A stretch of DNA of 64,000 nucleotides from Thermoplasmatota archaeon (GCA_029259115.1 JAPDJO010000076.1:1-64000), one strand, 5' to 3'. Shown: positions 6,131-23,523, numbered from the stretch's first letter. The notes: generated by a model from the sequence alone, not told the origin. A program made the numbers and translations.

Positions 6131-9058
6131 ATGAAGAACGATAAGGTTATTGTAACGATAGGGGTAGTAATCCTATTAATAGCTGCAGTTGGTGTCTACT
6201 TCTACAAACCAGCCGGAGAGAAAGTATTCCTAGCGACTGGAGAGACGTTGAATTTAATGTGTGGAGTAATGAAAGATGTGCCAAGCGCTATAGAAGTATC
6301 AGACTCTAATCCATTCTACGCTTTGATAGCAACTCCTCTGGCTGTGCATTATGATAAGGAAGGTAACAGAGAAGTTATACCCATGTATATCAAGAACATG
6401 TCCAATCCATCTAGAGCTGTCATAAGAACTGAACAGATGGTTGGTAGATTGGTAGATTTGGTGATAGATGGAAAGAAGTCACCCAAAGAAGTTTCACTTG
6501 AATTAGCTGAAAAATATTGGGACAAAAGCGATCTTGCTTTGATAATTAAAAACGATAAGGAGGGCTATGAGGTTGGTTTGGTGGCTACACCAATAGCAAG
6601 CTATCTTTCGATACCTGTCATAGTTACTGATGAGATAGATTCTGATGTTATCGAAACACTTAGCAAACTCAAGGTAAGACATGCTTTAATATGTGGCAAC
6701 CTCTCCACTGATTTATTTAGTCCATACAAGATCGAAACGGCAGATGACGCTTTGAATATAACTTTAAGCCTTGTAGAGGAGAAGTTTGGAGAGGTAAATT
6801 ACATAACAATGACAAATCCACTTGATGCTTGGAGACCAAAGGTGTTGGATAAAGTATTCTACTCTTCGCCTGTTATCGAGTTATGGTCATCCTCCTCAAC
6901 ACAATTATTTAGAATGGCAGTAGGTCTTGTATTACAAAAGACTACGGCAAATTTCTCATTCCGTATCCCTGATGATTATAAGTATGCCTTAGTCAAAGTC
7001 GAAGTTATTAATCTAGATCCGGAGGGGGTTGATGATTTTGGCGATGCAGTTGGCGTGATGGGAGGAATAGTTGATCCAAGCGAACCAAAACTCCTTCGGG
7101 AGGCGGAGTTGCTTAGCTATGGAGTAACCACTGCATCTAATCCTGTAGTAAGGGATGCAACAGGCAAGGTAATTAAGGATAGATTCTACCAAGAGGTTTT
7201 ACTATACGATAGAGGTGGTGCAGAGTACAAATTAAATATAACAGGAAGCTGGCTTTCTAGAAAATCTGGAAGGGTACAAGTCAATGTTGAGGTGGATAAA
7301 CTTGAAAATCCATACTACGCGATGATGAAAGGATTATCTACTGTAACCCCCTATCTAACGGCATATCATAAGGGAATAATATTTGCAAGGCCAGATTTTG
7401 CATTCTATCCAGATGATAATGTCAAAACTTTGAAGGGAGAAAGATGCCCAGGTTACTATTCAGTTAGAAAGAATCCAAAGTTAGCTTATGCTCATAACAT
7501 GCATGTGTTTAACAAGATACACAAACCCTTAAATAAACTCTTGGCAAAGCTTGCGGATATAGACATTTCAACTCCAGATGGACTAAAACAACTCAGAAAT
7601 TACTACAAAGACAATCCAGTCTACATAGCAATAGTTGGAGATGCAGAGATGATGCCAAGAATTGTCTACGATAATTTCTTACTCCCGTTGTCAGAAGATG
7701 CGTTAAATGAGTTGAGCTCATATCTTGGGAGCTATGGTCTTGGGACACCTAGCGATTTTATATATGGTAATATAGATCCAATACCAGGAGACTATTCCAA
7801 TATGGCAAATGATACTTTCAGCTATTATCCATATCAAGAAAATATAGTTGGAAGATTGGCTGGCTGGGATGCACAAGATGTGTGTGCACAGGTCGTAAGA
7901 ACAATCTTCTACTATGATATCATAGAAAAGCTCGGGGATTGGAAGAACAGAGCCACTGTGTTGGTTGGCGGCGGACAAGACTTCCAGAGACCACCTTTAA
8001 GATACTTTATATCTAAATTGACTGGAAATGATGAGGAAGCAGTTAAATTACCGACAGGATTCGGAAAGATAATGATGGAGAGAACCAAGGAGGTAACTCT
8101 AGAACCGCTAGGATTCAATGTAACTACCGCTTATGATTGCGAAGCATCTGCAGCAGGATATAGTGATGAAGCGCTCGACACAATAAAGAAAACATGTCTC
8201 CTTAACAGATTAGTATTCTTTAAAGGCCTTGTGGCCAAATATCTTGGAGAAGATGCTGTAAAAGGAGGAGAATACATGGAGAATAGCAACTTTATATGGG
8301 CAAATGCACATGGTCAGCCACATATGTTTGGTATGCCCGGACCATCGATACTTGGTTTAGGATTTGGTGGGCCAGTAATGAGATGGATACTAGAAAGAGC
8401 GTTATCATGTATAGATGGTGGCTTTTTCGGACCAGGATTTTCTCTATCGGCAGTTGGAGACTATACTCCAAGAAGAGTATCAGAAATGAACTTAGGACCA
8501 TCTGTTATGTGGATAGATAGCTGTCTGTGTGGAAAAATAGGCGGAGTTTATCCACAAAACTCTATATCTATGGCATTCATTCATGCTGGAGTAAATGCTC
8601 TAATCTCTTCTCCAATGGAGTCAAACATAGCAGGAGGATACCTTGAACCAAAGAAACACCTATACGATACACCTTGGTCCGTTGCTAGGGCTTACCTCAA
8701 TGCCACAAGAAATGCAAAGAAGGGCATCTATCCAGAACCACACTTTGGTTACATGCTATTTGAAGATCTATGTAAAGAGTTGGCAAAGAATGCAACCATA
8801 GGATTAGCACTCAGAAATGCTAGAAATGCATATCTACCAAAGGACGCAAATTCAACATTCTGGTGGTCTCCACCTCTAGTGACTACTGGCAATCCTCTAC
8901 TTGATCTTAAGCTATTCAAAGAGAGACAAACAAAATTCAAAGAAATGTTTGGTACCGAGAAAACAAAAGTTCTACCAAACAAGTACTTTGAATTCCAGGA
9001 GTGGTGCCTTTACGGAGATCCAGCATTTAACCCATATGTGCCTGGAGAGGCTAGCTAA
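6131..9058 (+). CDS. Membrane-anchored C25 (gingipain-like) cysteine peptidase
   Basis: N-terminal anchor helix; IAIVGD, VGRL, His motif NAHG, Cys motif DSCLCG, C-terminal LYGDP. Confidence 0.75.
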   Translation: MKNDKVIVTIGVVILLIAAVGVYFYKPAGEKVFLATGETLNLMCGVMKDVPSAIEVSDSNPFYALIATPLAVHYDKEGNREVIPMYIKNMSNPSRAVIRTEQMVGRLVDLVIDGKKSPKEVSLELAEKYWDKSDLALIIKNDKEGYEVGLVATPIASYLSIPVIVTDEIDSDVIETLSKLKVRHALICGNLSTDLFSPYKIETADDALNITLSLVEEKFGEVNYITMTNPLDAWRPKVLDKVFYSSPVIELWSSSSTQLFRMAVGLVLQKTTANFSFRIPDDYKYALVKVEVINLDPEGVDDFGDAVGVMGGIVDPSEPKLLREAELLSYGVTTASNPVVRDATGKVIKDRFYQEVLLYDRGGAEYKLNITGSWLSRKSGRVQVNVEVDKLENPYYAMMKGLSTVTPYLTAYHKGIIFARPDFAFYPDDNVKTLKGERCPGYYSVRKNPKLAYAHNMHVFNKIHKPLNKLLAKLADIDISTPDGLKQLRNYYKDNPVYIAIVGDAEMMPRIVYDNFLLPLSEDALNELSSYLGSYGLGTPSDFIYGNIDPIPGDYSNMANDTFSYYPYQENIVGRLAGWDAQDVCAQVVRTIFYYDIIEKLGDWKNRATVLVGGGQDFQRPPLRYFISKLTGNDEEAVKLPTGFGKIMMERTKEVTLEPLGFNVTTAYDCEASAAGYSDEALDTIKKTCLLNRLVFFKGLVAKYLGEDAVKGGEYMENSNFIWANAHGQPHMFGMPGPSILGLGFGGPVMRWILERALSCIDGGFFGPGFSLSAVGDYTPRRVSEMNLGPSVMWIDSCLCGKIGGVYPQNSISMAFIHAGVNALISSPMESNIAGGYLEPKKHLYDTPWSVARAYLNATRNAKKGIYPEPHFGYMLFEDLCKELAKNATIGLALRNARNAYLPKDANSTFWWSPPLVTTGNPLLDLKLFKERQTKFKEMFGTEKTKVLPNKYFEFQEWCLYGDPAFNPYVPGEAS

Positions 9059-9273
9059 AACATCCCTAGTATCTCTTTCTTTCCCAATCTTTTCACATTG
9101 TTTTTTATTGTGTTTGATAAAAGAAGTGCTTTTTATTGACAGCAACTGAACTAACTTATTTTACTCTCAGTACCCTCTTCCATCACATCCTCAAACTGAT
9201 AAAAATAAAGTCAAAAAAGAGAAATTGTTTACTGGTGTGTTATCAAACATAATAGACCATTATCATCTAGTTT

Positions 9274-11757
9274 CTATGAAACCGAGGGTAGATTGTATCC
9301 ACCCAGCTTCAAACTCGGGTCCCCAAATAGAACCCACTGTTCCACTGTCTTAGCATGACCAGATTCTAGGTCACTCATATCGAACGTATTGACGTATTCT
9401 ACAACTGCGTGAGCAAATGCATCTCCTAATATATCATGACCTTTCTCTCCATACTGCCTAAAGAATTCTATAGTGATCCATCCATCTCCACCCGTAGATG
9501 TACATTCTCTTCCCATCCTTCCATATCCTAAGCCAGTGTTTCCAATTGTCGCAATAGCTCCTCTACCTGGCAGTTTCACCAAATACCACGAAAAACACTC
9601 CGGAACAGGCACTCCATAAGTCCACATCTTTGTATCCCTGCCAAGCAAATAGAGAGGGTAATGCATAAATGCAGGAATTGCCGATACATTGAATTGAGAA
9701 TTGTGACACCCTCCGATGACAATGACCGGAAGTTTGCCAAAATTCCTAAGCTTTTTCATTGGAAAAGGTCTTATAGGATTGAAAGAGACAACCTCTAGAC
9801 CTGTTACGCTTCCATGTCTTCTATTGCCCGGAACCCCAGGCAAGTGATCCGCCCATACATTTGGACTACCATGACCTGACATGAATACAAATCCCGCTCC
9901 CTCGCTTATAGCTCTTATAACGTCGCTCATGCTTCTAAACTTTCCATTGGATGTCCATAGCACTACTTTTTCGAAATCATCAGGCATGTAGTACAAAGCT
10001 CCACCTCTACCATTAAGCAATTTCTCTCCAGTTATCCACTCTCCTTCATAGTACATCTCTGTGTTATTTCTCCATGCAGAAAACACAATTTCATGATCTT
10101 CATTCTCTACCCATACATGTATGCTAGTTATATTCCCGTAAGGTCTAGGATCATAGCATTTTCCCCTTATATGCATTACACCTTTCTTGTATGTTACATT
10201 TGCCCAACCAGTAAACTGATTACAATATGCTTTATTCTCTCCTGGAGAAAAGAAAACATCGGTTTTACCAAGAATATCTCTGTTTGATGGAGATGTTATC
10301 TCTGCAACCGGTAAAGCAGGATAGGTTTTCACCTTTTTATGATCATCATGATTGAAAGTTATTTTAGATCTTTCTTTTCTGTCTATTTTCACAGTTACTC
10401 TATCTATATTTCCAGCTATTCCATCTTTGTTGATGGCCTGCGCATATATCGTGTAGGTCCCATCTGGAAGACCAGTCGTATTCCACTGTATATCTAAATC
10501 CTGCTGATCCAGAAAGCCATCCCCAGATATCACGATAATTCTCTTGAACCAATTGTAATTATTCTCGCTATTTTCGTACCTTATTATCTTGTTAATGACC
10601 GTTCTGAGTTCAAACAGATTTCTGCACGGCAATCTTCCAACTATGACATCTGGACAGAGATCTATGTCAGTATCGTTTTCTACGCCTGGTTTGCCCCATG
10701 CTGCAAATATTCCATCGTTATTTGTGTCCCATGAAGAAAAGTTACCATTTCCGTCATATATATCAGCATAATAGAGATCACTGATTACTCCAGGATCAAA
10801 TATCTTCTTTTCTCCAAGTGGATACTTTGGATGATCGTATAAGTTCGTATATCTGACAGGTAAATACCAATACTTAGATCCTTGATTTGGATCATCTCTA
10901 GGTTTAGCCCATATTTTGCTCTTCAAACCACCAACAAGAAGAACATAGGTTATGTTGTAATTCTCTTTAGCGTATTTTATGAAATATTTTATCTTCTCAG
11001 GTTTGTCTCTTCCTGGAAACTCTCTGTATATGTCTTCTGTTGTCTTCAGAAAAGTCTTTACACCAACTTTGTTTTTATGTTCAACCAACCTCTGCAGTTC
11101 CTTTGCAAAACATGAAGGAGCTATTATGACCATGTCATATTCGTTTTTGGAAGACAACTTTTTGACGTTTTTTGGAATTAGATAGGTTACAGTCACTTTA
11201 AATTTATCCGTATAAAGTAATTTTTTGCTTGCAGGAATGTATCGATAGGGATAGAGATATACAGAAAGGTGCTTGACTACAACATTCCTCTCATTCAGTC
11301 CACTTCTGACGTAAAACTTGAACCAACTTGATGGATAAGGTTTGTCACTTGTGTAGATATCATGGTCTTTGAAAGATTTTATGTGGATATCAGAATCATA
11401 TACCAAGGGTAGCATTGGAGCGGCTGGTTCTATATCTTTATCTAAGATCCTTTCTTTTGTTGATCCTACACTTATCTTCACGTTAATATCTCTTGCAGAG
11501 AATGGTAATTCTACATGTTTAACTATCATAGGAAGTTTAGGTTTTCCTCCTTCCGCAAGGTAAGAAATTTTTTCTTCATCATATTCGCTTACATCAAGTG
11601 ATGCGCATTTTCCAGCATTTATTACATTAATTCTTGGCACCTCAACATCGAAATTAACCATTTTTATCTCATATCTAATTTTGTCATTCTGGGTAGCCGT
11701 AGCAGTTACACTCATCATTAAAACAAGCATCACAACTATCGAAAACCCTCTCTTCAC
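9274..11757 (-). CDS. Secreted C25 (gingipain-like) cysteine peptidase with propeptide
   Basis: Signal peptide; propeptide-like GKPKLP; YVLLVGG, SDLYYAD, VGRLPCR, SGHGSP, GGCHNS, LFGDPSL. Confidence 0.85.
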   Translation of the reverse strand: MKRGFSIVVMLVLMMSVTATATQNDKIRYEIKMVNFDVEVPRINVINAGKCASLDVSEYDEEKISYLAEGGKPKLPMIVKHVELPFSARDINVKISVGSTKERILDKDIEPAAPMLPLVYDSDIHIKSFKDHDIYTSDKPYPSSWFKFYVRSGLNERNVVVKHLSVYLYPYRYIPASKKLLYTDKFKVTVTYLIPKNVKKLSSKNEYDMVIIAPSCFAKELQRLVEHKNKVGVKTFLKTTEDIYREFPGRDKPEKIKYFIKYAKENYNITYVLLVGGLKSKIWAKPRDDPNQGSKYWYLPVRYTNLYDHPKYPLGEKKIFDPGVISDLYYADIYDGNGNFSSWDTNNDGIFAAWGKPGVENDTDIDLCPDVIVGRLPCRNLFELRTVINKIIRYENSENNYNWFKRIIVISGDGFLDQQDLDIQWNTTGLPDGTYTIYAQAINKDGIAGNIDRVTVKIDRKERSKITFNHDDHKKVKTYPALPVAEITSPSNRDILGKTDVFFSPGENKAYCNQFTGWANVTYKKGVMHIRGKCYDPRPYGNITSIHVWVENEDHEIVFSAWRNNTEMYYEGEWITGEKLLNGRGGALYYMPDDFEKVVLWTSNGKFRSMSDVIRAISEGAGFVFMSGHGSPNVWADHLPGVPGNRRHGSVTGLEVVSFNPIRPFPMKKLRNFGKLPVIVIGGCHNSQFNVSAIPAFMHYPLYLLGRDTKMWTYGVPVPECFSWYLVKLPGRGAIATIGNTGLGYGRMGRECTSTGGDGWITIEFFRQYGEKGHDILGDAFAHAVVEYVNTFDMSDLESGHAKTVEQWVLFGDPSLKLGGYNLPSVS

Positions 11758-11882
11758 TTTATCACCAAATCTTTAAATGTTTAAAGATTTATAAAATTGA
11801 TGTATTTTATCAGGAATTGCTTAGTAAGATATAACTTTTTTACAAACGACCGAAAGGTATTTAGGGCATTGCATTTAGATAA

Positions 11883-12257
11883 TCAAATACATCTACATCT
11901 TGTCGGTATGAAACTACATAATGTCGGCATTACTGGGCAAAGAGTAGGTGTCATACAGCCAGTGGGTGCTGTATATGGTTTATAGAAGAAACGATAGTTG
12001 ATATTTTCAGACCCTGATAATTTAATCCATCTAATCTTCCATATTAATGACGAGAGTATCAAAACCCTCGACTTCAAATAAGAGAATTTTATATCCTCTT
12101 TGTGAAACAACGATTTTCCAGATTTTAATCTAATAGTAAAGAGAGGACTTTCCTCAGCTTTATCAGTACTATTGTTGCCAGAGACTATAGGTGTATTTTG
12201 AAGTGCTATTGTAATTAAAATCAAGACCATCCCAGCTGCAAGTATGATTCGTTTCAC
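11883..12257 (-). CDS. Small secreted Cys-rich precursor-like protein P1 (PLFxIR family)
   Basis: Signal-like N-terminus; ESPLFTIR...SYLKSRV..SSLIW pro-region; tail with 4 PTxC repeats and 5 Cys. Confidence 0.8.
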   Translation of the reverse strand: MKRIILAAGMVLILITIALQNTPIVSGNNSTDKAEESPLFTIRLKSGKSLFHKEDIKFSYLKSRVLILSSLIWKIRWIKLSGSENINYRFFYKPYTAPTGCMTPTLCPVMPTLCSFIPTRCRCI

Positions 12258-12304
12258 AATTATGGTTATATATAAAGATCTATAAAAATTTTATTATCAA
12301 CTCT

Positions 12305-13185
12305 GCTGTGTTGAATAATTCTTAAGTTCCTCCTCTGCATCCAGTATCATGGAGGGGATGGAATGCAGAGGAGGAACTGGAAGGATTATAACGAGAAATT
12401 AGTAAGAAGGGGAGAGGTTTATATATCTTTGGATTTCCTTGATAGCTGGGATGATGAGCTTGCAAAAATGAACAAAGGTAAGGTTGGTAAACCTTTTGTC
12501 TATCCTCAAACATTCATCTATTTCTCTTCTTTCATCTACATCGCTTTTCTACCATATCGACAGATAGAGGGATTCTTCAGAAAACTTTCAGAGTTTATAC
12601 CTAAATTAAAATCTGCAGATTACTCTACCCTCTGTAAAAGGTTGAAGAAATTGGACGTTAATCTTCCAGAAAATCTCGGGAAAGAGCAAAAGAAGAGGGA
12701 TTTCAAAAAGGTACATATTCTCGTCGATTTGCTATCCAAGAAAATAATCTACTGTTTGTTAACAAAAGGAACATCATCAGATTCAAAACAACTCAAAAAG
12801 ATGCTAAGGGGATGCAAAGGATGGACCAAGATAGAGATCATTTTGGGTGATACAGGCTATGATACAAGGGAATGCTTTGATGAAATCGATGAGTTTGGTG
12901 CGATTCCCGTAATAAAGGTAAGGAAAAATTCCTCCTCTTTATCAAGAGGTTCCCCAGTTAGGAGGAAAGCTGTTATTGCCCAAAAGCGTGACAATGAAAA
13001 ATGGAGGAGAGAAGTTCATTATACTATGGAGATGCGTGGTTGAAAGCATATTTTCAGGGGGTAAAACGCAGATTTGGAGAATACCTCTTTAGTGTTAAAG
13101 AGGTATTTAGGAGAGTTGAGGTATGGTTGAGAACATACTCTGGAATGTACTGATATATCTGAGGAGAGAATATATTACACAAAGT
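12305..13185 (+). mobile_element. IS5-family element remnant (transposase pseudogene from 12363)
   Basis: RNWKDYNEKLVRRGE N-terminus; KKVHILVD; GDTGYDT. The first catalytic Asp segment appears deleted. Frameshifted tail VESIFSG/RRFGEYL. Imperfect terminal IRs gctgtgttgaataa / atattacacaaagt. Confidence 0.8.
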
Positions 13186-13350
13186 ATATCAACTCGATAA
13201 ACTATTGTTATCAGAGTCAAAACTAATTTTTCCTAGAAAATACAGCGGAGAGTGGAGAGGGAAAGAGCTGCTGTGTATTGATAAAAAATAAATTGGAAAA
13301 GAGTATGGAATAGATATTTCCCATATCCGAGGTAAACCGATATTAGTGAA

Positions 13351-13656
13351 ATGATGCCACTATATAAATAATTAGAATAATGCAAGCAATCGAGAAAGAT
13401 AGATACAACTCCAGAAATAAAATATTTAGATAATGGATATAGAATTTTTTTATATAATCATGGCTAGAACTTAAACTGTCATATCTCAAGGAACCCAAAA
13501 TGGAAATTTTGTGAGCGATGCAGGATGCTTGGTCGTCAAATCTTTACCGCATGTTCAGAATGTTCAGTCAGCAGACCATGTAACATGATTGTAACGCGGA
13601 TGTCCGTATGCACGAATCACTTTCGTACACATGATAAGTATATAAAAAATCAATAA
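13351..13656 (+). pseudogene. Decayed copy P2 of the PLFxIR Cys-rich precursor family
   Basis: Manual translation: MMPLYK/(shift)IRIMQAIEK/(shift)IDTTPEIKYLDNGYRIFLYNHG*NLNCHISRNPKWKFCERCRMLGRQIFTACSECSVSRPCNMIVTRMSVCTNHFRTHDKYIKNQ*. Confidence 0.7.
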
Positions 13657-13691
13657 CAGTTATATGTGCTAAAGAGATTTATAATTTCAAA

Positions 13692-16181
13692 ATGGATATC
13701 GAGAAATTGTATCATGCGATTAATATTGCAATACTGTTTGTTGTGATATCAATCGCAGGCAATATGGTAGGTTTTTTAGGCAAACCATTATCTTCCTTTT
13801 ATATTTCTATTTCTGTACTTACTCTATCTTTTTTGAATCTATATAGGGATCGAAAAAATACAAAATTTCCTAAATCCTATAAAGAAACCAAATTAATCAC
13901 AGGATACCTTTTGATTATACTTTCTCTAATTCTAGCATTTAGCTACAATTTTAATCATCTTTACCCTGTCATATCTATCCCTATTCTATTCATAGGTCTA
14001 GACATTATTGGAAAAACAAAAGTAGAAACTGATGTAATGGTGGTATCTTCAACTCTATGTATACTTCTTCTAATTCTTTTAGACACAAATTCAATAGCTT
14101 GGTTTATAGTAAATGATTTTTCCAAAAACATATCAATCTCGGTCACATCACTTACAGGTAGATACTATATCCTTGGATATTCATCAAGCGGATTCTTTAT
14201 GTTTATCCTTTCGCTTTCAATCGCTCTTGTAATAATACTATTCTCAAAAAGATTAAAGCAATTCTTCATTTACCCACTTTTGCTACTTCTGATCTGGATC
14301 ACATATATACTTACCTTGGGTGTAATAAATTTCGATACAAACGGTGATACTGTTAGATTCTTACCAATTCTATGCTTAGCCTTCGCATCTATCTTAGCAT
14401 TTCAGATTTATAAGAGTGAATTGAGAAAACAAAAGAAAAAAAGACCAAAATTCATCATTAATTTCATCATCTTCTTATTAATATCAACTTCGGTACTCAT
14501 GCTCATTATTTCACCATGTCAAATTAAACCAACTAAAAGAGAAAGAATACTCTTTTATGGGGAAAATATGCTGGGGACATGGGATACCCCAGAATATGGA
14601 AAGTATGGTAGGCTTGCACCTGGTATGTTTGGTCTGCTGCCTTACTATCTGAAAATTTATGGCTATAACTGCACAATTTTTACAAAAAATATCACGAAAT
14701 TTGTAGAAAGAAATCAACCAACATATGAAAATCTAACCAGATATGTCAACCTGACAGAATTTGTAAATTTTATAGAGGATGAAAGAGTAACAGAGGATAT
14801 TCTTAAAAAATTCGATGTTTTTGTTGTAATAAACCTTAATACCACATTCTCAAACGAGGAAAAAAAAGCGATATGGAAATTTGTTGAGGATGGTGGATCT
14901 CTTCTTGTTTTAGGAGATCACACTGGCATGGATAATCTCATGACATCTTTGAATAATCTCCTTGAGGGTAAGGGTATAGCCTTTAGATTCGATTCAGCCT
15001 TACCTTTAGATCCAGCAAATAGCTGGTTGACCTGTTACAATAAGATGAATAATCCAGTAAATTTCGGAATATCAAATGAGGAAATAGAAATAAGCATAGG
15101 TGCATCCTTGAACATAACTCCTCCAGCATTCCCAGTAATAGTTGGTGATTTTGCATTTTCAGATTACGGTGATGTTACAAATGTCGAAAATGCATATTTA
15201 GGAGATTACAAGTATGGTAAAGGAGAATTGCTTGGAAATGTGGTATTGGTTGCAGGACGATATTATGGTAAGGGGAGAGTTCTAGTTTTTGGTGACACAA
15301 CAACATTTCAAAATCCGTCTCTTTCCCTATCACATAGATTTGTATCAAGAATTTTTAGTTGGCTAGCGAATGGCAATAGTTGGGAGATAGATGTTGCAAA
15401 GCAGGTATTATCCTTTGTATTACTCATCTTTGCCGCAATTTTACTCTCTAAGAATCAGGATTTCAAATTACTCCCATTTGCATTGTTACTTGCTATAATC
15501 CTCTCTATCTTCATTAATTCTCAGCTGATAAAAGATGCTGAGCCTGAAGGTCCTTTGATGTATATAGATACAACGCATGTCAATGGATTCTCGATCTCTC
15601 CTTTTAATACAAAATCTCTAACTGGAACAATAATAAACTTTGCAAGAAACGGTTACCTGCCTTTGATTTCAGAAGATTTTAGTTACAGCAGAATTAACAA
15701 ATCATCGATACTTCTAATTGTTGCTCCAAATGAACCATTTTCTGATGAAGAAGTCAAAGATATGATGAGATTCATGGAAAGCGGTGGATTGATCATACTT
15801 AGTTCTGGATATCAATGTAGAGATTGTGTAATACCTCTGTTAAATAAGTTTAAATTAGATATAGACAACATTCCTTTAGGTCCAGCCCCTTACGTTGAGG
15901 AAAATCCAGAGGAGCACCAGATGGAGCCAAAATTTGTCGATGCCTGGCCGATATTGGTAATGAACAAAACAGCTGTATCATACTACGATCTTTACATCGA
16001 AAACCAGACATATACTCTAGCAGTTTTTATAAAGCATGGAAAAGGAGGGCTAATACTAATAGCGGATAACGAATTCTTCTTAGACAAAAATATAGAATCG
16101 ATAAACTCGATTTGGCCTGGAAATATCCAGTTTATTAAAAATATGATCGATGATGTTAGGGAGAGAGGTGTTTTAAGATGA
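13692..16181 (+). CDS. Polytopic membrane protein A: TM bundle + two GIFT/DUF4350 (GATase-like fold) domains
   Basis: Multiple N-terminal TM helices; FSNEEKKAIWKFVEDGGSLLVLGDHT and YGKGRVLVFGD; 2 TMs; second domain FSDEEVKDMMRFMESGG...HGKGGLILIAD. Confidence 0.75.
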   Translation: MDIEKLYHAINIAILFVVISIAGNMVGFLGKPLSSFYISISVLTLSFLNLYRDRKNTKFPKSYKETKLITGYLLIILSLILAFSYNFNHLYPVISIPILFIGLDIIGKTKVETDVMVVSSTLCILLLILLDTNSIAWFIVNDFSKNISISVTSLTGRYYILGYSSSGFFMFILSLSIALVIILFSKRLKQFFIYPLLLLLIWITYILTLGVINFDTNGDTVRFLPILCLAFASILAFQIYKSELRKQKKKRPKFIINFIIFLLISTSVLMLIISPCQIKPTKRERILFYGENMLGTWDTPEYGKYGRLAPGMFGLLPYYLKIYGYNCTIFTKNITKFVERNQPTYENLTRYVNLTEFVNFIEDERVTEDILKKFDVFVVINLNTTFSNEEKKAIWKFVEDGGSLLVLGDHTGMDNLMTSLNNLLEGKGIAFRFDSALPLDPANSWLTCYNKMNNPVNFGISNEEIEISIGASLNITPPAFPVIVGDFAFSDYGDVTNVENAYLGDYKYGKGELLGNVVLVAGRYYGKGRVLVFGDTTTFQNPSLSLSHRFVSRIFSWLANGNSWEIDVAKQVLSFVLLIFAAILLSKNQDFKLLPFALLLAIILSIFINSQLIKDAEPEGPLMYIDTTHVNGFSISPFNTKSLTGTIINFARNGYLPLISEDFSYSRINKSSILLIVAPNEPFSDEEVKDMMRFMESGGLIILSSGYQCRDCVIPLLNKFKLDIDNIPLGPAPYVEENPEEHQMEPKFVDAWPILVMNKTAVSYYDLYIENQTYTLAVFIKHGKGGLILIADNEFFLDKNIESINSIWPGNIQFIKNMIDDVRERGVLR

Positions 16182-18643
16182 AAAAATCTCTTCTCTGGTT
16201 AGCTGCGATATTAATTTCATTTTCTCCACTTTATTTATTATATGTAAATGAACCCCCAAATGTAGAGATTGGGCTTTTTACGGTATTTGTGGCGACATTT
16301 CTTCTTATATTTTCCGATTATAGATTCGAAATGGGTAGTAAAACATCAATTTTCCTTCTAATTCCTTCACTCATCGTAGTTTTCCTACTCGACTTTCCCT
16401 TCAACATAGGCTTTATAATGCTATCAATAGCTATCATTCTAAATATAGCGTTATCTTATGTTGGTATACTTGAGAAAATACAGAAACTAGTCAGTGGCAT
16501 TTTTCTCAGCGGCATTTTACTACTAATCGTGTATGCCTTTTATCCGCTATATTCTGTGATATTCTCTCGCTACCATAGAGTCGACATTTTGAATAATCTC
16601 TTTTCTGGATTGCTTCATCTTTTCGGAATCCAATCAAGCGTTAATAATAATCTAATTTACATCCAAACGTATAACCAAACCTTCCCCTTTACAGTGACAT
16701 GGGAGAAATTATGCATCCTCATCTGGTTAAATCTTTTCTTAATATTTTTATTCATCTCCTTTCTATCGTTCAACAAAAAGAGATTTCTCAGAAATCTTGG
16801 GATATTCATCCTGATAGCTTTGTTTTACTCAGTATTCAGACTTCTCCTCACTACGATAATTTACTCCCAAAACTCCAAACTAAGTACATTCTGGGATACA
16901 AACCTAGCCCTTTTAACCTTTATACCTCTCTTCATCCCCCTTTCTTTACTTATAAAAACTAATGAGGTAAAAATCGATATGTCTTTCGGAAAGATCAATA
17001 AAAAAACATCTGTAACCATGTTGACACTCTTCCTATCGATATTCTTCCTAATAGGATCAATAGCTTTTGAAGATCCTGGAATAAGGAAATCTGGAAAAAT
17101 TCTCATAGATGAGGTTCATAGCGATTGGGAGGATACAACAAGAGAGATGGATAAAGAATGGTATGGTATGCTGTCAACCTACAATTACTACTGTTGGGCC
17201 AAGTGGTTGGATGTTTACTATGATGTTGATATAAACACCAACAGAAGCTTGACTTATGACTTGCTGAAGAATTACGATATTTTAATAATAAAATGCCCTA
17301 CTAGTCTATTTTCAGATAAAGAAATTGATGCCATTCTTAGATTTGTGAAGGAGGGCGGCGGACTCTATCTTATAGGTGATCACACCAACGTATTTGGAAT
17401 GAATTTTTACTTAAATCAAATCTCGAAAAAATTAGGAATAGAATTTAAGACGGACGCAACATATGAGCTGAACACAGGATCATTATCTGTATATAAACCC
17501 CCTTCTTTATTTGCACATCCGATTGTTAAAAATATTAATAAATTCGAATTTCAAACATCTTGCTCATTAAATGCACCTCTGTTTTCAGAGAACGTCATAA
17601 TAGGCTATGGTTTACTTGGTGAGCCTGGGACCTATTCAACAGAAAATTTCTTTAGAGAACCACTCTCTTCACCAGATGTAGAATATGGGTTACTTCTCCA
17701 GACAGTAGCTCTCCAGTATGGTAAAGGAAGAGTGGTTGCGTTTACAGATAGTACATGTTTTTCTAACTTCTGCGTATTTATGGATGGATACAGAGAATTT
17801 AACCTTGGAGTTATAGAATATCTCAATAGGATAAACGCCTACAACTACGTCAACACCCTGTTTGTGATAGCTTTTATCATTCTCCTTATAGTCTCGATAA
17901 TCTTTATCAAGGAGGAAAAAGTGGGGAAAATAGTATCTATCTTCTTTTTCTCTACATCGATCGCGTTTGCAACATCGGCACCCCTTTTTGATTACATTAA
18001 CTCAATTAACTACGAGCTGCCAAGCATAGAAGAGCACCCAATGGTATGTTTTGATATGGAACATTCAGGAATAGAAATATCTCCATATGCCCATATGGAA
18101 CTCCACGATCCTGCGGATGTGTATAACACATTCTTTGTATGGACTCAAAGAGTTGGATGGATGCCCTCGGTGGAGAAAACGATAGAGAAATCTATTGAAA
18201 AGGGAGATGCTATAATTATCATAAATCCAAACAAATCATTCAGCGATGGAGAAATTGAAAAGATTAGAAAATATGTCGAGGAAGGAGGAAGATTATTAGT
18301 TTTAGACTCCATAAGAAATAAGGATTCCACTGCAAATCAAATTTTAAATACATTTAACATGGAGTTATCCACGGAAACATCGAACTTATCTCTGAGATGT
18401 GATAACTCTAGTATAGGGAATATCACGATTCCATATCTCTCAATCATCGGTGGGGACGTTAATTTTTCCTTCAATAACAACACCTATATTTCTATTAAGG
18501 AGTTTGGAGAAGGAAAAATCGTGGCAATAGTTGATTCCTATACGTTTAGCGATGAGGTTATGGGGGATGTCTTTACTGAGCCAGATGAGAAACTCAGAGC
18601 AATATATGATGTAGAATATTACATACTCGAAGCTTCTAATTAA
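16178..18643 (+). CDS. Polytopic membrane protein B: exosortase-like TM region + two GIFT/DUF4350 domains (paralog of A)
   Basis: ATGA overlap with A; LLHLFGI..NNLIYI..FTVTWEKLC..YSVFR; ILIDEVHSDWE, FVKEGGGLYLIGDHT, YGKGRVVAFTD; second domain YVEEGGRLLVLD..FGEGKIVAIVD. Confidence 0.75.
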   Translation: MKKSLLWLAAILISFSPLYLLYVNEPPNVEIGLFTVFVATFLLIFSDYRFEMGSKTSIFLLIPSLIVVFLLDFPFNIGFIMLSIAIILNIALSYVGILEKIQKLVSGIFLSGILLLIVYAFYPLYSVIFSRYHRVDILNNLFSGLLHLFGIQSSVNNNLIYIQTYNQTFPFTVTWEKLCILIWLNLFLIFLFISFLSFNKKRFLRNLGIFILIALFYSVFRLLLTTIIYSQNSKLSTFWDTNLALLTFIPLFIPLSLLIKTNEVKIDMSFGKINKKTSVTMLTLFLSIFFLIGSIAFEDPGIRKSGKILIDEVHSDWEDTTREMDKEWYGMLSTYNYYCWAKWLDVYYDVDINTNRSLTYDLLKNYDILIIKCPTSLFSDKEIDAILRFVKEGGGLYLIGDHTNVFGMNFYLNQISKKLGIEFKTDATYELNTGSLSVYKPPSLFAHPIVKNINKFEFQTSCSLNAPLFSENVIIGYGLLGEPGTYSTENFFREPLSSPDVEYGLLLQTVALQYGKGRVVAFTDSTCFSNFCVFMDGYREFNLGVIEYLNRINAYNYVNTLFVIAFIILLIVSIIFIKEEKVGKIVSIFFFSTSIAFATSAPLFDYINSINYELPSIEEHPMVCFDMEHSGIEISPYAHMELHDPADVYNTFFVWTQRVGWMPSVEKTIEKSIEKGDAIIIINPNKSFSDGEIEKIRKYVEEGGRLLVLDSIRNKDSTANQILNTFNMELSTETSNLSLRCDNSSIGNITIPYLSIIGGDVNFSFNNNTYISIKEFGEGKIVAIVDSYTFSDEVMGDVFTEPDEKLRAIYDVEYYILEASN

Positions 18644-18667
18644 TTATAACTAAAAGTGAATGCTGTA

Positions 18668-18922
18668 AGAATGAGTCTTTGATCTTAGTAGATAGAGGAC
18701 CCTGGTATAAATGAGCTCTATAGAGATTGGGATTGAGATACGTTCGTCAAACCCTTGGAGAAAGGAGTGTTATAGAACAATGGTGTAGTCTGTTCAAAGC
18801 TAGAGTAAAACGATTCTGGAAAAGATTTCCATATCACAGCTTACTGGATAGTATTAAAACTTGGACAATAGTGTGGTGTGCCATCTATAATCTATGCTGG
18901 AGGTGGGAAAGTTGACAGTGTC
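18668..18922 (+). mobile_element. IS6-family transposase remnant (3' part) with right end
   Basis: ILVDRGPWYK*AL*RLGLRYVRQTLGERSVIEQWCSLFKARVKRFWKRFP with internal stops; ends in gttgacagtgtc, similar to IS6 TTGACAGTGCC. Confidence 0.8.
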
Positions 18923-18972
18923 AGCAAAAGTGAGATAAAATTTTATATATGAGAGAATATATACTCTTATTG

Positions 18973-19347
18973 ATGGTTAAAAGGAGAGTTGGCATAGTCG
19001 TATTATCAATTCTTCTGGTGATATTATCCTACCATACTTTGATAACTCCAGTCAGTACAACGAGAGCCATTTTACATAAAGGTAACCAACCACATCCGCT
19101 TTTCAAAATAAGAGCATACACTGCTGCAGAAAAAAATCTCCCAGAAATAGATGCAAAATATCTAAATAAGATCTCTATCATTTCGTCGTTAATATGGCTA
19201 AGCCATCAGAAGTTCACTCACAATCAAAAACATGCTACATTAGTACCACCTACGTGTAACTGTAAAACAGGTCCTATAAGTTGCTTCTGCTGTATTCTCG
19301 GCACAACTTTAGCCTGCTTCCGCCATACGGTTTGGTGCAACATGTAG
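18973..19347 (+). CDS. Small secreted Cys-rich precursor-like protein P3 (PLFxIR family)
   Basis: Likely start at 18973, just after a TATA-like box (track start 18949); hydrophobic helix; HPLFKIR...KYLNKISIISSLIW; tail with 7 Cys. Confidence 0.8.
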   Translation: MVKRRVGIVVLSILLVILSYHTLITPVSTTRAILHKGNQPHPLFKIRAYTAAEKNLPEIDAKYLNKISIISSLIWLSHQKFTHNQKHATLVPPTCNCKTGPISCFCCILGTTLACFRHTVWCNM

Positions 19348-19355
19348 AAACAATG

Positions 19356-20744
19356 TCAGACAAACAGAAGAGTCACATTGTCCCAAACAGAATTCCCATA
19401 TTTATCGTATGCCTTCGCCTCTATTCTATGTTCCCCCTTTAAATTCTTTTTAATTTTCCACTCGAACGGAGCAGAGGTAGCTGTATGCTCTAAGTTGCCA
19501 TCAAGATAAAATTCCACCTTTTTACCCCCCTCTACGTATGCTACTACTGTTATATCTCCAATAATAACCGTCTTACCGATTCTCGCTAAAATCCTTTCTA
19601 AAAGTTTCCCTGTTTTGATCTCTTTGTCATTTACATACAGCCTGTAAATCATTTTGCCTTGAGGTTTTGTTATAAAGACCATCAATTCGTTACATGGAGG
19701 AAGATCCTCATCTGGAACTTTTGCTAGCCATGCCACAACTCTTCTGTGAATCCACCAATTTTTACTCATGTTCAATGTTGTACCATTATACCAAGCGTAT
19801 ACTATTCTTGGAATGCCCAGGGTATTTCTTCCAAAGAACTCTTTTATGGTCCCATTTACCATTACAGGAATCTCAGGATGGGATGAAAGCAGAACAATTC
19901 TCCCACTATTGTTATATGTTGTTGCGATACCTGCAAATTGCCCTTTGATATCAGTCTTTATCACCCTATCCTTTATCCATCCTATCAAAGCTTTCTTCCA
20001 GAAATGTATAGGTTTAGTTTCCATTAGCTCCTCATTGTATATCAGAAGAGGTGTAATTTTACCTAATCTAGAGTCATTAGAATCTGCTATATACATTCCC
20101 GCGCCGCCGCCGTAAGAGATGTTAAATACATCCTTCTCAAAAGGTAGAAAAATTGGATTGTTAACTTCTCTATTTATTCTAACTTCTATTGGTATTTGAC
20201 CGAATCTTGGACTTACCCACTCAGACTCTTTCAACAAATATTGCAACTCCCCATCAAAGTCATCATTTAGATATATGTTAGCTATTCTGAGCACGCCTTT
20301 GTTCACCTCTTTTTCGAACCAATTATCGGGATTCTCATAACCCTGAGATGCCAAGAATGCTCCTGCACACACGCCATAAAAACCTTTTCCATCTGATAGG
20401 AATCTTTTAATAGCTTTCCTAAAATTTGGATTTTTCCCATCTTTGAGATATGATCTGTAGTTTGCTCCAGCGATAAAGACATCGTAATCCTTTAAAATGG
20501 AATAAAAGCCCTTAGATCTTACTTCTTCATAACTCAACTCGTGCACCTCGAATCTGTATGACTTGTTATGAATTCTCCAAGCATAATTTAGAGACAGTTT
20601 GAGAGATTCATCCGAACCCGTTCCTTTAGGGTAAATAGCAACCTTTATTATTCTCTCATTGAGATTTCCTGTGGAACTATGGACTATCAGTGTGGAGAAG
20701 ACGAAAGAGACGGCAATCAATAGAGATATTATCCTGATCCACAT
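19356..20744 (-). CDS. Secreted BPL-N/class I GATase-like hydrolase with C-terminal Ig-like domain
   Basis: Probable start MWIRIISLLIAVSF (20744, signal peptide); nucleophile elbow GVCAGA; SHPE; C-terminal KVEFYLDG..APFEW..HRIEAKAYD. Confidence 0.75.
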   Translation of the reverse strand: MWIRIISLLIAVSFVFSTLIVHSSTGNLNERIIKVAIYPKGTGSDESLKLSLNYAWRIHNKSYRFEVHELSYEEVRSKGFYSILKDYDVFIAGANYRSYLKDGKNPNFRKAIKRFLSDGKGFYGVCAGAFLASQGYENPDNWFEKEVNKGVLRIANIYLNDDFDGELQYLLKESEWVSPRFGQIPIEVRINREVNNPIFLPFEKDVFNISYGGGAGMYIADSNDSRLGKITPLLIYNEELMETKPIHFWKKALIGWIKDRVIKTDIKGQFAGIATTYNNSGRIVLLSSHPEIPVMVNGTIKEFFGRNTLGIPRIVYAWYNGTTLNMSKNWWIHRRVVAWLAKVPDEDLPPCNELMVFITKPQGKMIYRLYVNDKEIKTGKLLERILARIGKTVIIGDITVVAYVEGGKKVEFYLDGNLEHTATSAPFEWKIKKNLKGEHRIEAKAYDKYGNSVWDNVTLLFV

Positions 20745-20857
20745 ATCACTAATAATTTCTACTTGATTAAATATATATTTTATCATACAATTACTTTCAC
20801 AAGAGTTAAAACAAAAGATTTTTATATAATAAAAACCAATATAAATTTGGTGATCTA

Positions 20858-21295
20858 ATGAATGTAAGACTTGCAGTAACTGGGATGGTGATGATTTCCC
20901 TGATAATCTTTGCAGGTCTAGGAGTAGCAATGACCAAATCCAAAACAGAAGAAAAAGTTTCACCATTATATAAGATCAGAACACTTCAGTCAATAAAAGA
21001 AAAAGTCAGCACACTGAAAGCATCCTACTTAAGTAACAGAATCTTTGTTTGGTCACTGCTGAAATATTTACTTGAAAGATATAAGGAAAACCATCAAGAA
21101 TTTTCTACCGTGTGTTCCATATGTAAGACAAGAGGCTGCAGACTATCCCTACCACTGGATGATGGGAGAGAGGATCTATCAACGAGAGAATATTTCTGTA
21201 AAACATATGTAAAGTGCAAACCGCCAGTAGGCTTGCAGAACCATCAGATGATTTCTAGAGTAATAGCACCTTCATACTGCATAAAGTGCCTATAA
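20858..21295 (+). CDS. Small secreted Cys-rich precursor-like protein P4 (PLFxIR family)
   Basis: TATA-like box and GGTGAT SD; signal helix; KVSPLYKIRTLQSI..SYLSNRIFVWSLLKYL; tail with 7 Cys ending ISRVIAPSYCIKCL. Confidence 0.85.
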   Translation: MNVRLAVTGMVMISLIIFAGLGVAMTKSKTEEKVSPLYKIRTLQSIKEKVSTLKASYLSNRIFVWSLLKYLLERYKENHQEFSTVCSICKTRGCRLSLPLDDGREDLSTREYFCKTYVKCKPPVGLQNHQMISRVIAPSYCIKCL

Positions 21296-21413
21296 TTTAA
21301 TCAGGAGCAATTTCCTTACCTCTTTTGATCATCTCTTCAATTTGTGAATCATTTTATAAAATCAAATAGAAATTTTTATAGTACCAAAAACAAATATCAA
21401 ACTGGTGAGAACA

Positions 21414-21809
21414 ATGGATATGAAGTCTATAATTCTTGTGTCTATAATAATGGTATCCTTTCTATTTGCCAGCCTAGCAAATGCCTTCTCAACAGAACGC
21501 ACAGAGAAGAAAGTCTCACCCCTATTCAAAATCAGAACCCTACAATCTATAGAGGATAAGACTATCAATCTAAAGGTAGACCACCTAAAGGAAAGGATTT
21601 TCATTTGGTCACTACTGAAGTTCCTAATCGAGAACAGAGGAGAAGGGCGAATTTTAGAAGGATTCACTGTTACTTGGATATGCACATACAACTGTAAATC
21701 TGTATATACTCCTGTATGTCCAGGAATAACAAGGCATTCACAAATTCAACAACCTCTCATTTCCAGGGTTGCGACGACCCCATCATACTGTATAAAGTGT
21801 CCATCTTGA
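21414..21809 (+). CDS. Small secreted Cys-rich precursor-like protein P5 (tandem paralog of P4)
   Basis: GGTGAG SD then ATG 21414; signal peptide ending ANA; KVSPLFKIRTLQSI..HLKERIFIWSLLKFL; tail with 5 Cys ending ISRVATTPSYCIKCPS. Confidence 0.85.
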   Translation: MDMKSIILVSIIMVSFLFASLANAFSTERTEKKVSPLFKIRTLQSIEDKTINLKVDHLKERIFIWSLLKFLIENRGEGRILEGFTVTWICTYNCKSVYTPVCPGITRHSQIQQPLISRVATTPSYCIKCPS

Positions 21810-21867
21810 CAGAATTAAAACCTCTATTACCAGTCGCAATCTTTTAGATTAGAGAATCCATAAATGA

Positions 21868-22809
21868 ATGGTGTACGAACCAGAGAACAATCCAAAATAT
21901 ACCTTTATGGAAAAGAACCCTTCCTTTTATAGTAGATACTTGAACATAGATAACAGTGAGGCATTCTTCAATTACATGCTAAAACCGATAAAACCCTCTG
22001 TGAGAATAAATACTCTGAAAGCAGATATGGATGAGGTTGTCGAGAGACTAAGTGAAGATTTTGAACTTGATAATATAAAATGGTGCAAAGAAGGATTTTA
22101 CATAAATACAAACAATTTTGGAGGCATAATCGAGCATAGACTCGGCATAATATTCCCTCAAGAAGCAGCATCCATGATTCCAGCAAATTTAATGGAGCTA
22201 AGATCAAAGATGAAGGTTTTAGATTTATGTGCTGCGCCAGGCGCAAAGACTACGCAGATAGCTCAGTACATGGAAAATGAGGGATGTGTAATAGCAAACG
22301 ATCCAAATGCAAGAAGGATAAATATACTCATATCCAATCTCCAGAGATGCGGAGTTTTGATAACTAGGGTGACAAAGAAAGATGGTAGATACTTTTCCAG
22401 ATATGAGGAAAGATTCGATGCAGTTCTTGTCGATGCCCCTTGTAGCAATGTTGGAATGATAAGAAAGAACTTCAAGTATCTGAAGTTTTGGAGAGAGAAG
22501 GAAATAGGATATCTATCGAATTTGCAAAAATCTTTGATCTTGGCTGGATACAGGGCTTTGAAACCTGGAGGAATCTTGATCTATTCAACCTGCACTCTGG
22601 ATCCGTTGGAAAACGAAGAAGTCGTAAATCACTTGTTGGTGAATACTGATGCTGATATAGAGAGTATAGATCTCCCTATCAACAGAAGAGAACCTTTTCT
22701 CAAGTTTGAAGATAAAATTTATACGAGTGAGGTTAAAAGATGTTTGAGAATACATCCGCAGGATAATGATACAGAAGGCTTCTTTGTTGCAAAGATAAGA
22801 AAACCCTAG
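21868..22809 (+). CDS. RsmB/NOL1/NOP2 family RNA m5C methyltransferase
   Basis: VLDLCAAPGAKTTQ, VDAPCS, YSTCT, EGFFVAK. Confidence 0.92.
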   Translation: MVYEPENNPKYTFMEKNPSFYSRYLNIDNSEAFFNYMLKPIKPSVRINTLKADMDEVVERLSEDFELDNIKWCKEGFYINTNNFGGIIEHRLGIIFPQEAASMIPANLMELRSKMKVLDLCAAPGAKTTQIAQYMENEGCVIANDPNARRINILISNLQRCGVLITRVTKKDGRYFSRYEERFDAVLVDAPCSNVGMIRKNFKYLKFWREKEIGYLSNLQKSLILAGYRALKPGGILIYSTCTLDPLENEEVVNHLLVNTDADIESIDLPINRREPFLKFEDKIYTSEVKRCLRIHPQDNDTEGFFVAKIRKP

Positions 22810-22817
22810 GTGATAAG

Positions 22818-23261
22818 ATGAGCGAAACAAAGGAGAAGATAATGAAGTATCTAAGGGAGCAGTATGGTGTCGAAAATATAGACTTTGAAATTAAGGAAAA
22901 GGAGAATAAAAAGCTCTATGCCTTTAAGAAATGCGAGGATATAGATATTGAAGAGCATAGGCATTTCAATGGTTTGTACTTCGGTAGACTCTGTAAAGAT
23001 GGGTTAAGATTGTCTATAGAAGGTTCTTTCCTTATAGGAAGAATAGCGAAATATGGTGTAATTGATCTAAATAGAGAGGAAGCAGAGAGATGGTTATCTG
23101 GTGAAAATCTAAAAAGGAAGGAAAAAGGATACGTTATATTGAGATGGAGATCTTATTATCTGGGTTGTGGAAAAGGAGATGGAAAGATGATTAAGAATTT
23201 TGTACCAAAAGAGAGGAGGTTGACCCATGGAGATAAAAGAGTTTCAAAGAAAGATGCATGA
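22818..23261 (+). CDS. RsmF C-terminal/NIP7-PUA-like RNA-binding protein
   Basis: GLYFGR..GLRLSIEGSFLIG..WLSGENL..LGCG..NFVPKERR; follows the NOP2-family gene. Confidence 0.7.
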   Translation: MSETKEKIMKYLREQYGVENIDFEIKEKENKKLYAFKKCEDIDIEEHRHFNGLYFGRLCKDGLRLSIEGSFLIGRIAKYGVIDLNREEAERWLSGENLKRKEKGYVILRWRSYYLGCGKGDGKMIKNFVPKERRLTHGDKRVSKKDA

Positions 23262-23523
23262 GATTTATGGGGAAAGAGACAAAAAGAGAGGAATAGAGAA
23301 GACATACATGTGGGTAATAGAGGAAATAGGAGAGCTTGCTAGAGCGATAAGGAAATCGAATAGAGGAGAAATCGAGAACGAGTTTGCAGATGTCGTAGCC
23401 TGGATATTTTCTCTTGCAAATCTCCTTGAAATAGATATCGAGGATACACTCAAGAAATACGCTGCTGTCTGTCCAAAATGCAAGAAAAACCCATGCGGAT
23501 GTGAGGAGGGTTGGAAGAGTTAA
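23227..23523 (+). CDS. MazG-like nucleotide pyrophosphohydrolase
   Basis: [20 protein letters not shown]; C-terminal CPKC..PCGC. Confidence 0.85.

Follow-up and report, generated by a model that had tools for sequence, protein, structure and literature searches.

Small genes with a shared leader and variable Cys-rich tails lie beside a paired membrane protein in Thermoplasmatota archaea and suggest a new cell-surface peptide system

We analyzed a 64,000-nucleotide stretch of DNA from a Thermoplasmatota archaeon (GCA_029259115.1, JAPDJO010000076.1:1-64000), hereafter the window, in which four small genes (S1 – S4) surround two large genes (A and B) that encode a pair of paralogous membrane proteins. 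The small genes are members of a true, previously unnamed and lineage-restricted family, their leader is a portable module, and the link between the family and A/B is supported by synteny and by co-occurrence among related genomes. The presence of the family beside the same membrane pair in many relatives suggests, as far as sequence can tell, a new cell-surface peptide system. Our preferred explanation, to which we assign a probability of roughly 0.45, is a leader-addressed system for peptide handling or display that would tie varied payloads to A/B, the tails then being trimmed or released.

The first small gene, S1 (11883-12257, minus strand), encodes 124 amino acids (aa) with a signal-like helix, a pro-region containing SPLFTIR and a tail with five cysteines (Cys). 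The other three lie on the plus strand: S2 (18973-19347, 124 aa, or 132 aa from an alternative start at 18949) begins about 330 nucleotides (nt) after B and has a 7-Cys tail, S3 (20858-21295, 145 aa) has an 8-Cys tail, and S4 (21414-21809, 131 aa, or 134 aa from an alternative start at 21405) has a 5-Cys tail. Alignment of the four proteins gave invariant columns at P-L, I-R, L and S..L. In each, a basic N-terminus and a hydrophobic helix free of Cys are followed by SPL[FY]xIR, with [YH]L..[RK][IV] and S.L about 14-16 residues beyond; the tails, carrying 5-8 Cys each, could not be aligned between copies. A hidden Markov model (HMM) of the pro-region, 37 positions long and built from other members with the signal helix excluded, was searched against the six-frame translation of the window and recovered exactly S1 (E 4e-8), S2 (6e-10), S3 (2e-16) and S4 (6e-15), with nothing else at E <= 1. 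A preliminary description of this DNA had proposed four intact small open reading frames (ORFs) sharing a pro-region and a Cys-free helix, and the alignment and the HMM bear this out. Two public proteins (P0004 and P0007) are nearly identical to S1, and another (P0001) is 95% identical to S4. The ORF at 18727-18915 showed no match to the family, and Pfam and NCBIfam scans of the small window proteins matched no model.

The same description had counted a fifth, decayed copy at 13351 (plus strand); this possible copy (13351-13653) would be frameshifted, the frame of its Cys-rich end being still open. We found three pieces in the right order (13368-13430, 13381-13464 and 13468-13653, the last encoding 62 aa with 7 Cys), each in a different frame and each matching the profile only at E of about 0.02-0.4 when just a few dozen fragments were searched. 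No signal helix was found for it near 13351, leaving a plausible, if weak, candidate for a decayed family copy.

The four-copy profile yielded three further copies in the same genome (G000), bringing to seven the family ORFs that the pro-region HMM detects among all its six-frame ORFs (E <= 1). A profile search of 1.84 billion representatives returned 281 clusters (50% identity) at E <= 1e-3, 14 of them at E <= 1e-10 and none at E <= 1e-30; among the matches listed (150 of the 281 clusters), lengths were nearly all 90-170 aa. Only nine proteins were retrieved by a word-indexed protein search, and a profile search of genome contigs with a 17-row alignment led to a single locus, titled ‘uncultured Thermoplasmatales archaeon’. 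Source records call the members ‘hypothetical protein’ or leave them nameless, consensus-type members likewise have no Pfam or NCBIfam family, and the protein atlas groups one member with unnamed Thermoplasmatota clusters. No description of the family was found in the literature outside supplements, where lists of predicted peptides may hold members, and the available part of a survey (PMC12144867) of archaeal peptides synthesized by ribosomes and modified post-translationally (RiPPs) does not mention ‘cysteine-rich’, ‘Cys-rich’, ‘signal peptide’ or ‘DUF4350’. The suggestion that the family is undescribed thus stands, no library having a name for the small genes. Among 401 genomes sampled across Thermoplasmatota, 23 matched at E <= 1e-4: 21 within the archaeal family f2 (53 genomes), the window genome and one marginal genome outside the order (5e-5), so the protein family looks confined to one order.

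The family consensus reads MNKKILI.SILAVFMLV.ISFASAV, about 10 residues, KKESPL[FY]KIRT..AIGEKI...IKTKFLGERIFFLPFQW, and then the variable tail. Composition and signal statistics were compiled for 152 members. The Cys content is 0.25% in the leader and 11.6% in the tail, which has a median length of 41 residues, holds a median of 4 Cys (range 0-14) and is also enriched in Thr, Pro, Gly and Tyr. A lysine or arginine occurs within the first 8 residues in 143 members, an uncharged run with a median of 21 residues ends in a small-x-small site in 146, and the PL motif lies a median of 11 residues past the end of that run. The first ~25 residues look like a cleavable Sec signal; these features come from a simple count rather than a signal-peptide predictor, and a 21-residue run could also be an anchor.

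A (13692-16181, plus strand, 829 aa) and B (16178-18643, plus strand, 821 aa) overlap by 4 nt and their products are 28% identical (E 2.9e-26), in keeping with the earlier view of them as a coupled pair of paralogs with GIFT-type domains. Both exceed the Pfam cut-offs for IFT52_GIFT (59.5 bits for A, 43.1 for B), ABC_transp_aux (48.7 and 49.0) and DUF4350 (34.3 and 46.5). Protein A comprises about 10 transmembrane helices, a GIFT-like domain, two transmembrane helices and a second GIFT-like domain; an AF2 model (predicted local distance difference test, pLDDT, 81.8; predicted template-modeling score, pTM, 0.83) places the ~10 helices at residues 3-270, an alpha/beta domain at 285-540, the two helices at 564-612 and another alpha/beta domain at 620-825. 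Foldseek matched this model to the IFT52 N-terminal domain and OST48/Wbp1 (5fms E 1e-6; 6s7t_G E 1e-5; 7oci_G E 2.4e-4) and also to STM3548, the GH42 middle domain and S1P. The membrane domain of B, modeled alone (pLDDT 82.1), contains a small three-strand sheet; it gave no significant match among PDB folds (best E 0.07, TM 0.15-0.20), and Pfam and NCBIfam scans of 16 orthologs gave scattered single hits and no family. An exosortase- or archaeosortase-like ancestry of this domain was considered as a possibility. Five polar residues of B (H133, D136, T174, E176 and R221) are invariant across the 16 orthologs, and domain 1 of both proteins retains a G-D-H-T loop and an F-x-D-x-(S/T) strand. Genes for an ABC ATPase or permease are absent from the block and from its conserved counterpart in the relatives. 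The protein atlas holds similar, unannotated clusters of 810-864 aa in Thermoplasmatota and Planctomycetota. A complex prediction for B (821 aa, 16-row alignment) and a segment of S4, residues 25-90 (110-row alignment), run without controls, gave a score of 0.00 and a mark of 0.32 and counts neither way.

One set of 61 relatives was searched both with the profile of the small proteins and with A. The family was found in 27 and A in 23; 20 genomes had both, 3 had A only, 7 had the family only and 31 had neither, and a larger profile added a family match in G023 and G036, two of the three that had A only. In 14 genomes from 7 genera and 2 families (G000, G010, G015, G017, G022, G024, G027, G028, G029, G031, G044, G049, G051 and G056) a member of the family is encoded no more than about 1 kb from A/B and on the same strand, the gap from B to the family gene being usually 32-94 nt. 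The nearest member in G036 is 4.8 kb from A/B, the contig ends at the pair in G011, G023 and G038, and G006 has A/B with no family member found. (In the latter genome A/B adjoin a gene for a 1076-aa PKD-repeat protein with a caspase/C13-like domain.) Within f2 the block of A, B and small gene sits in a fixed order of housekeeping genes (Memo-like and deoxyhypusine synthase; creatininase, MetAP, Sua5 and MBF1), so part of the linkage signal there is inherited gene order. The surroundings differ in G000, G022 and G027, where the small genes are found upstream, downstream or on both sides of A/B. Scattered, unlinked homologs or tails of a known fold family, which the preliminary description had named as findings that would tell against it, were for the most part not encountered, and its expectation of co-occurrence with A/B held in the 14 genomes, with the reservations that three of the seven local copies are unlinked and that in relatives A/B is most often partnered by a longer form of the protein.

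Neither the family nor A/B was found in four genomes of the same genus as the window genome (completeness 70-96%). The G+C content is 0.34-0.37 over positions 10001-22000, 0.38-0.47 over the first 10 kb and about 0.38 downstream. The block at 10001-22000 may be an island.

In most f2 genomes the gene after B encodes this long form, about 220 aa in length, with the same signal-like helix, the motif SPLF.VRT...YLGKG, a helical region and a C-terminal membrane helix in place of a Cys-rich tail. Searched against 541 ORFs, the pro-region HMM, which lacks the signal helix, finds the long form with E values from 5e-6 to 2e-3 and nothing unrelated at E <= 10. The long form is expanded in one genus (G049 and G402); G049, a single 2.3-Mb contig, has 38 matches (for example at loci L011 and L037), many of them in tandem groups and three in tandem after B. 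Some of the expanded genes adjoin secreted Ig-like-repeat proteins and peptidase-like genes. After the long form in f2 there is always a gene we call c2 (L052:12934-13977, plus strand, with 9 further orthologs in alignment A8), encoding a secreted protein of about 350 aa in which His189 and Cys266 are invariant. It has no Pfam match, no PDB sequence match and no homolog in the window genome; going by its motif alone it could be a clan-CD peptidase.

The modular nature of the leader is seen in G027, where three family genes (L071:2435-2806, L071:8839-9159 and L058:538-861, all minus strand) have leader DNA that is 100% identical for about 240 nt from the start codon and then drops to 36-57% identity, with unrelated tails. 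Two of the three occupy the same site after B on contigs C7 and C42, which otherwise appear to be versions of one locus; the difference between their tails may be strain variation or an effect of repeat-driven assembly. Whichever the cause, the G027 population holds at least three tails for one leader. A public protein of 339 aa (P0013), encoded on a single 3.3-kb contig, has one signal followed by three successive units of pro-region and Cys-rich tail. The family gene of G016 (L076:111-476) has an in-frame TGA at the consensus Trp (FFLPFQ-W), beyond which 48 codons with 6 Cys remain open; a recent nonsense change, read-through or an error of sequencing could each explain this.

Contigs from two sequencing runs on one sample (X3 and X12; one a DNA run, one an RNA-library run) reveal a related strain in which 71-76 other letters replace positions 18626-19411/19419. 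That strain accordingly lacks S2, an insertion/deletion difference between strains. Comparison of close strains gave 45/46 identical positions in the tail of S1 and 43/49 and 42/49 in that of the copy on contig C1, above the values of their own signal regions. The tails of S3 (50/69) and of the copy on contig C4 (10/44 and 9/44) did not surpass theirs in this way. The conservation of the orthologous S1 and C1 tails indicates that tails are selected, specific sequences that differ between paralogs. The tails had been called hypervariable, and this applies between paralogs and not always between orthologs. Parts of A, B, protein H (below) and an insertion sequence (IS) element are represented in contigs of two RNA libraries, both made from one sample, which does not prove their transcription. 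In one DNA contig positions 12152 and 13722 are joined; this joint, with a short side of only 59 letters, was not used.

A candidate for an enzyme acting on the tails is H (19356-20744, minus strand), a secreted-type, GATase1-like protein of 462 aa with a signal-like N-terminus and a C-terminal Big_7 Ig domain. C126 (in G-x-C-x-G), H289 and E291 are invariant in 7/7 orthologs, and we read this triad, on the definition of a G-x-C-x-G elbow with H-x-E, as presumably of the class I glutamine amidotransferase type. The signal and the triad agree with the previous account of H as a secreted, BPL-N-like Cys-His-Glu protein; its match to Pfam BPL_N (20.7 bits) is below the cut-off of 24.2. Full-length orthologs of H are few, and H stands beside short-form genes in three genomes of three genera: G000, G022 (in the order S, S, H) and G027 (H, S, B, A, S). 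The proposed synteny with H extends to these three. A Big_7 protein beside A in G049 has the Ig domain alone in common with H. A second, shorter H paralog of 349 aa without the Ig domain occurs in the window genome (G000:C3:70356-71372; L077:6327-7376), and nearly all of 60 relatives have proteins of about 450 aa that match a stretch of H some 100 residues long.

At lower coordinates than S1 lie two genes whose membership in the system is uncertain: one for a secreted protein with Peptidase_C25 (188.5 bits, cut-off 23) and Propeptide_C25 (36.4 bits) domains (9274-11757, minus strand), and one for a distant C25-like protein of 975 aa (6131-9058, plus strand; Peptidase_C25 37.7 bits), both assigned to C25 by Pfam score. 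The two adjoining C25 peptidases of the preliminary description are thus recovered, and they adjoin the block only in the window genome. A C25 gene adjoins H in one relative, G006, where contig C106 (L074) carries an ortholog of H head to head with an ortholog of the 9274-11757 gene, with two more H-like genes alongside.

We propose that the small genes encode pre-pro-proteins that would be exported by Sec, and that the ~40 residues after the signal (SPL[FY]xIRT...[FY]L.(E)R[IV]FF), a conserved module, would act as an address tag. The tag would couple a downstream payload to A/B, the payload being a short Cys-rich peptide here and a helical, membrane-anchored body in most relatives. A and B would constitute a heterodimer-like polytopic pair, an outer-face platform that docks, sorts or holds the payload. 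In genomes with the short form, secreted Cys enzymes (H, and perhaps the C25 peptidases) might trim or release the tails, and the outcome would be small Cys-rich peptides of varied kinds, at the surface or outside the cell. Export, docking to A/B and cleavage are inferred, as is any part played in antagonism, signaling or surface variation. A bolder version, which we consider doubtful, has the pro-region tag read by A/B as a novel machine, on a membrane fold without a solved relative, that would mature or display a Cys-rich repertoire shuffled by swapping tails on the constant leader; in this one order it would be the archaeal equivalent of the toxins and defensins of animals, and its peptides archaeocins of a new class with a handling apparatus of their own.

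A number of observations weigh against a leader-addressed system. Three of the seven family copies of the window genome (contigs C4, C9 and C1) are sited away from A/B, beside housekeeping genes for PRC-barrel and decarboxylase-like proteins, a translation-factor-like GTPase and an aminoacyl-tRNA-synthetase-like protein (named by eye from translations, the PRC-barrel domain alone being verified). Most members are not encoded beside A/B in G049 either, its 38 long-form copies being spread over the genome. In G008, G012 and G047 the contig runs past A/B with no adjoining family member, and in G009 a CARDB protein gene follows B, the contig stopping just upstream of A. Eight of the 14 syntenic genomes belong to one genus and many are kin, so the counts overstate independence. 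H is not found in most genomes that hold A/B and a small gene; it has orthologs where the family is missing (G006, G007 and G043), and G016 has the short form without H. Pfam and NCBIfam scans revealed no ATPase, protease domain or known catalytic motif in A/B, and no immunity-like gene was identified. Tails with an odd number of Cys are just as frequent as those with an even number (76 vs 76), a poor fit to simple all-disulfide folds. No RNA-library contig lies over S1 or S3, which shows neither expression nor silence.

The strongest rival, albeit unlikely in our estimate, is that the family provides small fixed subunits of A/B: the helix would be an uncleaved anchor, the motif would bind A/B, the C-terminal part would be no more than the face that the complex exposes, nothing would be released, and the job of A/B would lie elsewhere, such as surface-layer or glycan handling. 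That most relatives have one conserved long-form gene 32-94 nt after B, ending in a transmembrane helix and not in a Cys-rich tail, is what such a subunit would look like, and the match of the outer domains of A to the oligosaccharyltransferase subunit OST48/Wbp1, an N-x-S/T sequon between helix and motif in 46/152 members and the conservation of some tails between strains point the same way. One would not expect a fixed subunit to occur 7 to 38 times in a genome with C-terminal parts that bear no relation to each other, nor to take the form of the three-module protein P0013 or of three tails on one identical leader, and the small-x-small site at the end of the helix in 146/152 members resembles that of cleaved signals.

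There might be no functional system at all, only fast-evolving small secreted proteins kept beside A/B by inherited gene order, a reading we hold to be rather improbable. The fixed flanks in f2 show that gene order is generally conserved there, and the unlinked copies of the window genome (3/7) fit as well. Against this, the adjacency persists with different flanks in G000, G022 and G027, the presence and absence of the family and of A track each other over the 61 genomes, and A itself is just 38-44% identical among the syntenic genomes.

It is improbable to a slightly greater degree that the tails are extracellular or surface peptides binding metal or sulfur in the manner of metallothioneins, the link to A/B serving for surface anchoring; such peptides would be of use where vents and sediments are rich in metal. 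The Cys content of the tails, their close spacings (mostly 2-7 residues), the equal frequency of odd and even counts and the origin of the runs containing this DNA, hydrothermal vent and marine sediment metagenomes (four of these runs were compared with the window), are all compatible with metal binding. What speaks against it is that no Cys pattern such as CxC or CxxC is family-wide, that Thr, Pro and Tyr are abundant in the tails too, that the tails are wholly different between copies, and that the long form keeps the link to A/B without a Cys tail.

Least credible is a strict RiPP pathway, in which a cytoplasmic enzyme recognizes the leader before export and leader removal: the conserved leader and variable Cys/Thr-rich core, likened to RiPP precursors from the outset, do resemble lanthipeptide and sactipeptide precursors in composition, but Pfam and NCBIfam scans of the genes at 6131-23523 and of the relatives’ conserved block revealed no radical SAM, YcaO, LanB/C/M or RRE-type domain as modifying enzyme, and the Sec-like N-terminus would export the peptide unmodified.

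The remaining features of the window are less closely connected to the small genes. Between S1 and A there is a remnant of an IS5-family transposase gene (12363-13153, plus strand) in two overlapping frames (DDE_Tnp_1; NF033579, 156.5 bits). In run X3 its read depth is uneven and reaches ~5-10x the depth on either side, which fits a repeat present in several copies. At 97-6017 the window contains genes for aconitase, two ATP-citrate lyase subunits and an isocitrate/isopropylmalate dehydrogenase, which hints at a reductive tricarboxylic acid-type pathway in this archaeon.

To our knowledge very few archaeal peptide weapons, signals or surface-variation systems have been described, and almost none outside haloarchaea and Sulfolobales. 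The hosts of the present family are uncultured archaea of sediments and hydrothermal vents with many secreted peptidases, and the constant leader, the exchangeable Cys-rich payloads and the gene-order tie to A/B offer a concrete, testable entry point. If a leader-addressed system is correct, it would provide the first functional context for large DUF4350/GIFT membrane proteins; if the link is inherited gene order only, the finding reduces to a new family of small secreted proteins.

In overall build the family resembles the prepropeptides of eukaryotic toxin and defense superfamilies such as conotoxins and defensins, which consist of a signal peptide, a conserved pro-region and a short Cys-rich mature part that differs between paralogs, and which occur in many copies. 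The likeness is one of build and copy number with no sequence relation; here the host is archaeal and export would be by Sec to the cell surface rather than through the endoplasmic reticulum, and the present family differs further in its common odd Cys counts, its tie to a membrane pair and its long form without a Cys tail. Among archaeal peptides, halocin C8 is rich in Cys and is freed by cleavage of a longer precursor. The model of its precursor (NF040679) did not match the four window copies, and among eight members scanned it touched one, at E 0.22 and 11.1 bits against a cut-off of 200.

The membrane pair has partial relatives of its own. OST48 carries two such domains on the non-cytoplasmic side, and the outer domains of A match the folds of OST48/Wbp1 and of the IFT52 GIFT domain at 13-18% identity; unlike in the setting of OST48, no STT3/AglB gene is adjacent and the membrane part is unrelated. 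A and B resemble GldG in passing ABC_transp_aux (48.7 and 49.0 bits, cut-off 34.7) and DUF4350, but they score only 25.4 and 35.1 bits with the GldG equivalog TIGR03521 (cut-off 389.85), have no ABC partner genes, and differ by their own 10-helix membrane domain and two outer domains. Type IX secretion is called to mind by a C25 peptidase with a weak PorU-like match (NF033707, 61.4 bits, well under its cut-off of 420) beside GldG-like proteins, yet the cargo signal of that system is C-terminal and the shared module here is N-terminal.

Two archaeal proposals come nearer in concept. According to the accessible part of the report on haloarchaeal HFX_0892/halolysin antagonism, an extracellular protease frees an active peptide from a secreted precursor (PMC12893001); like our proposal, this system and the archaeocins involve a secreted archaeal precursor, and they differ, as far as that part goes, in belonging to another phylum and in that no immunity part was seen here. 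Makarova and colleagues predicted, in the section of their paper available to us, that arCOG01314 (DUF4350/GldG-like) forms an archaeal secretion or membrane-remodeling complex with a vWA protein and a MoxR ATPase (PMC5898192). The likeness lies in an archaeal surface protein with a GldG-like domain for which secretion was proposed on genomic grounds, and the accompanying components described in that section are not present here. No known relative matches beyond the level of domains. A secreted prepropeptide build with variable Cys-rich ends is already known; it is the uncharacterized membrane partner, A/B, that is unprecedented.

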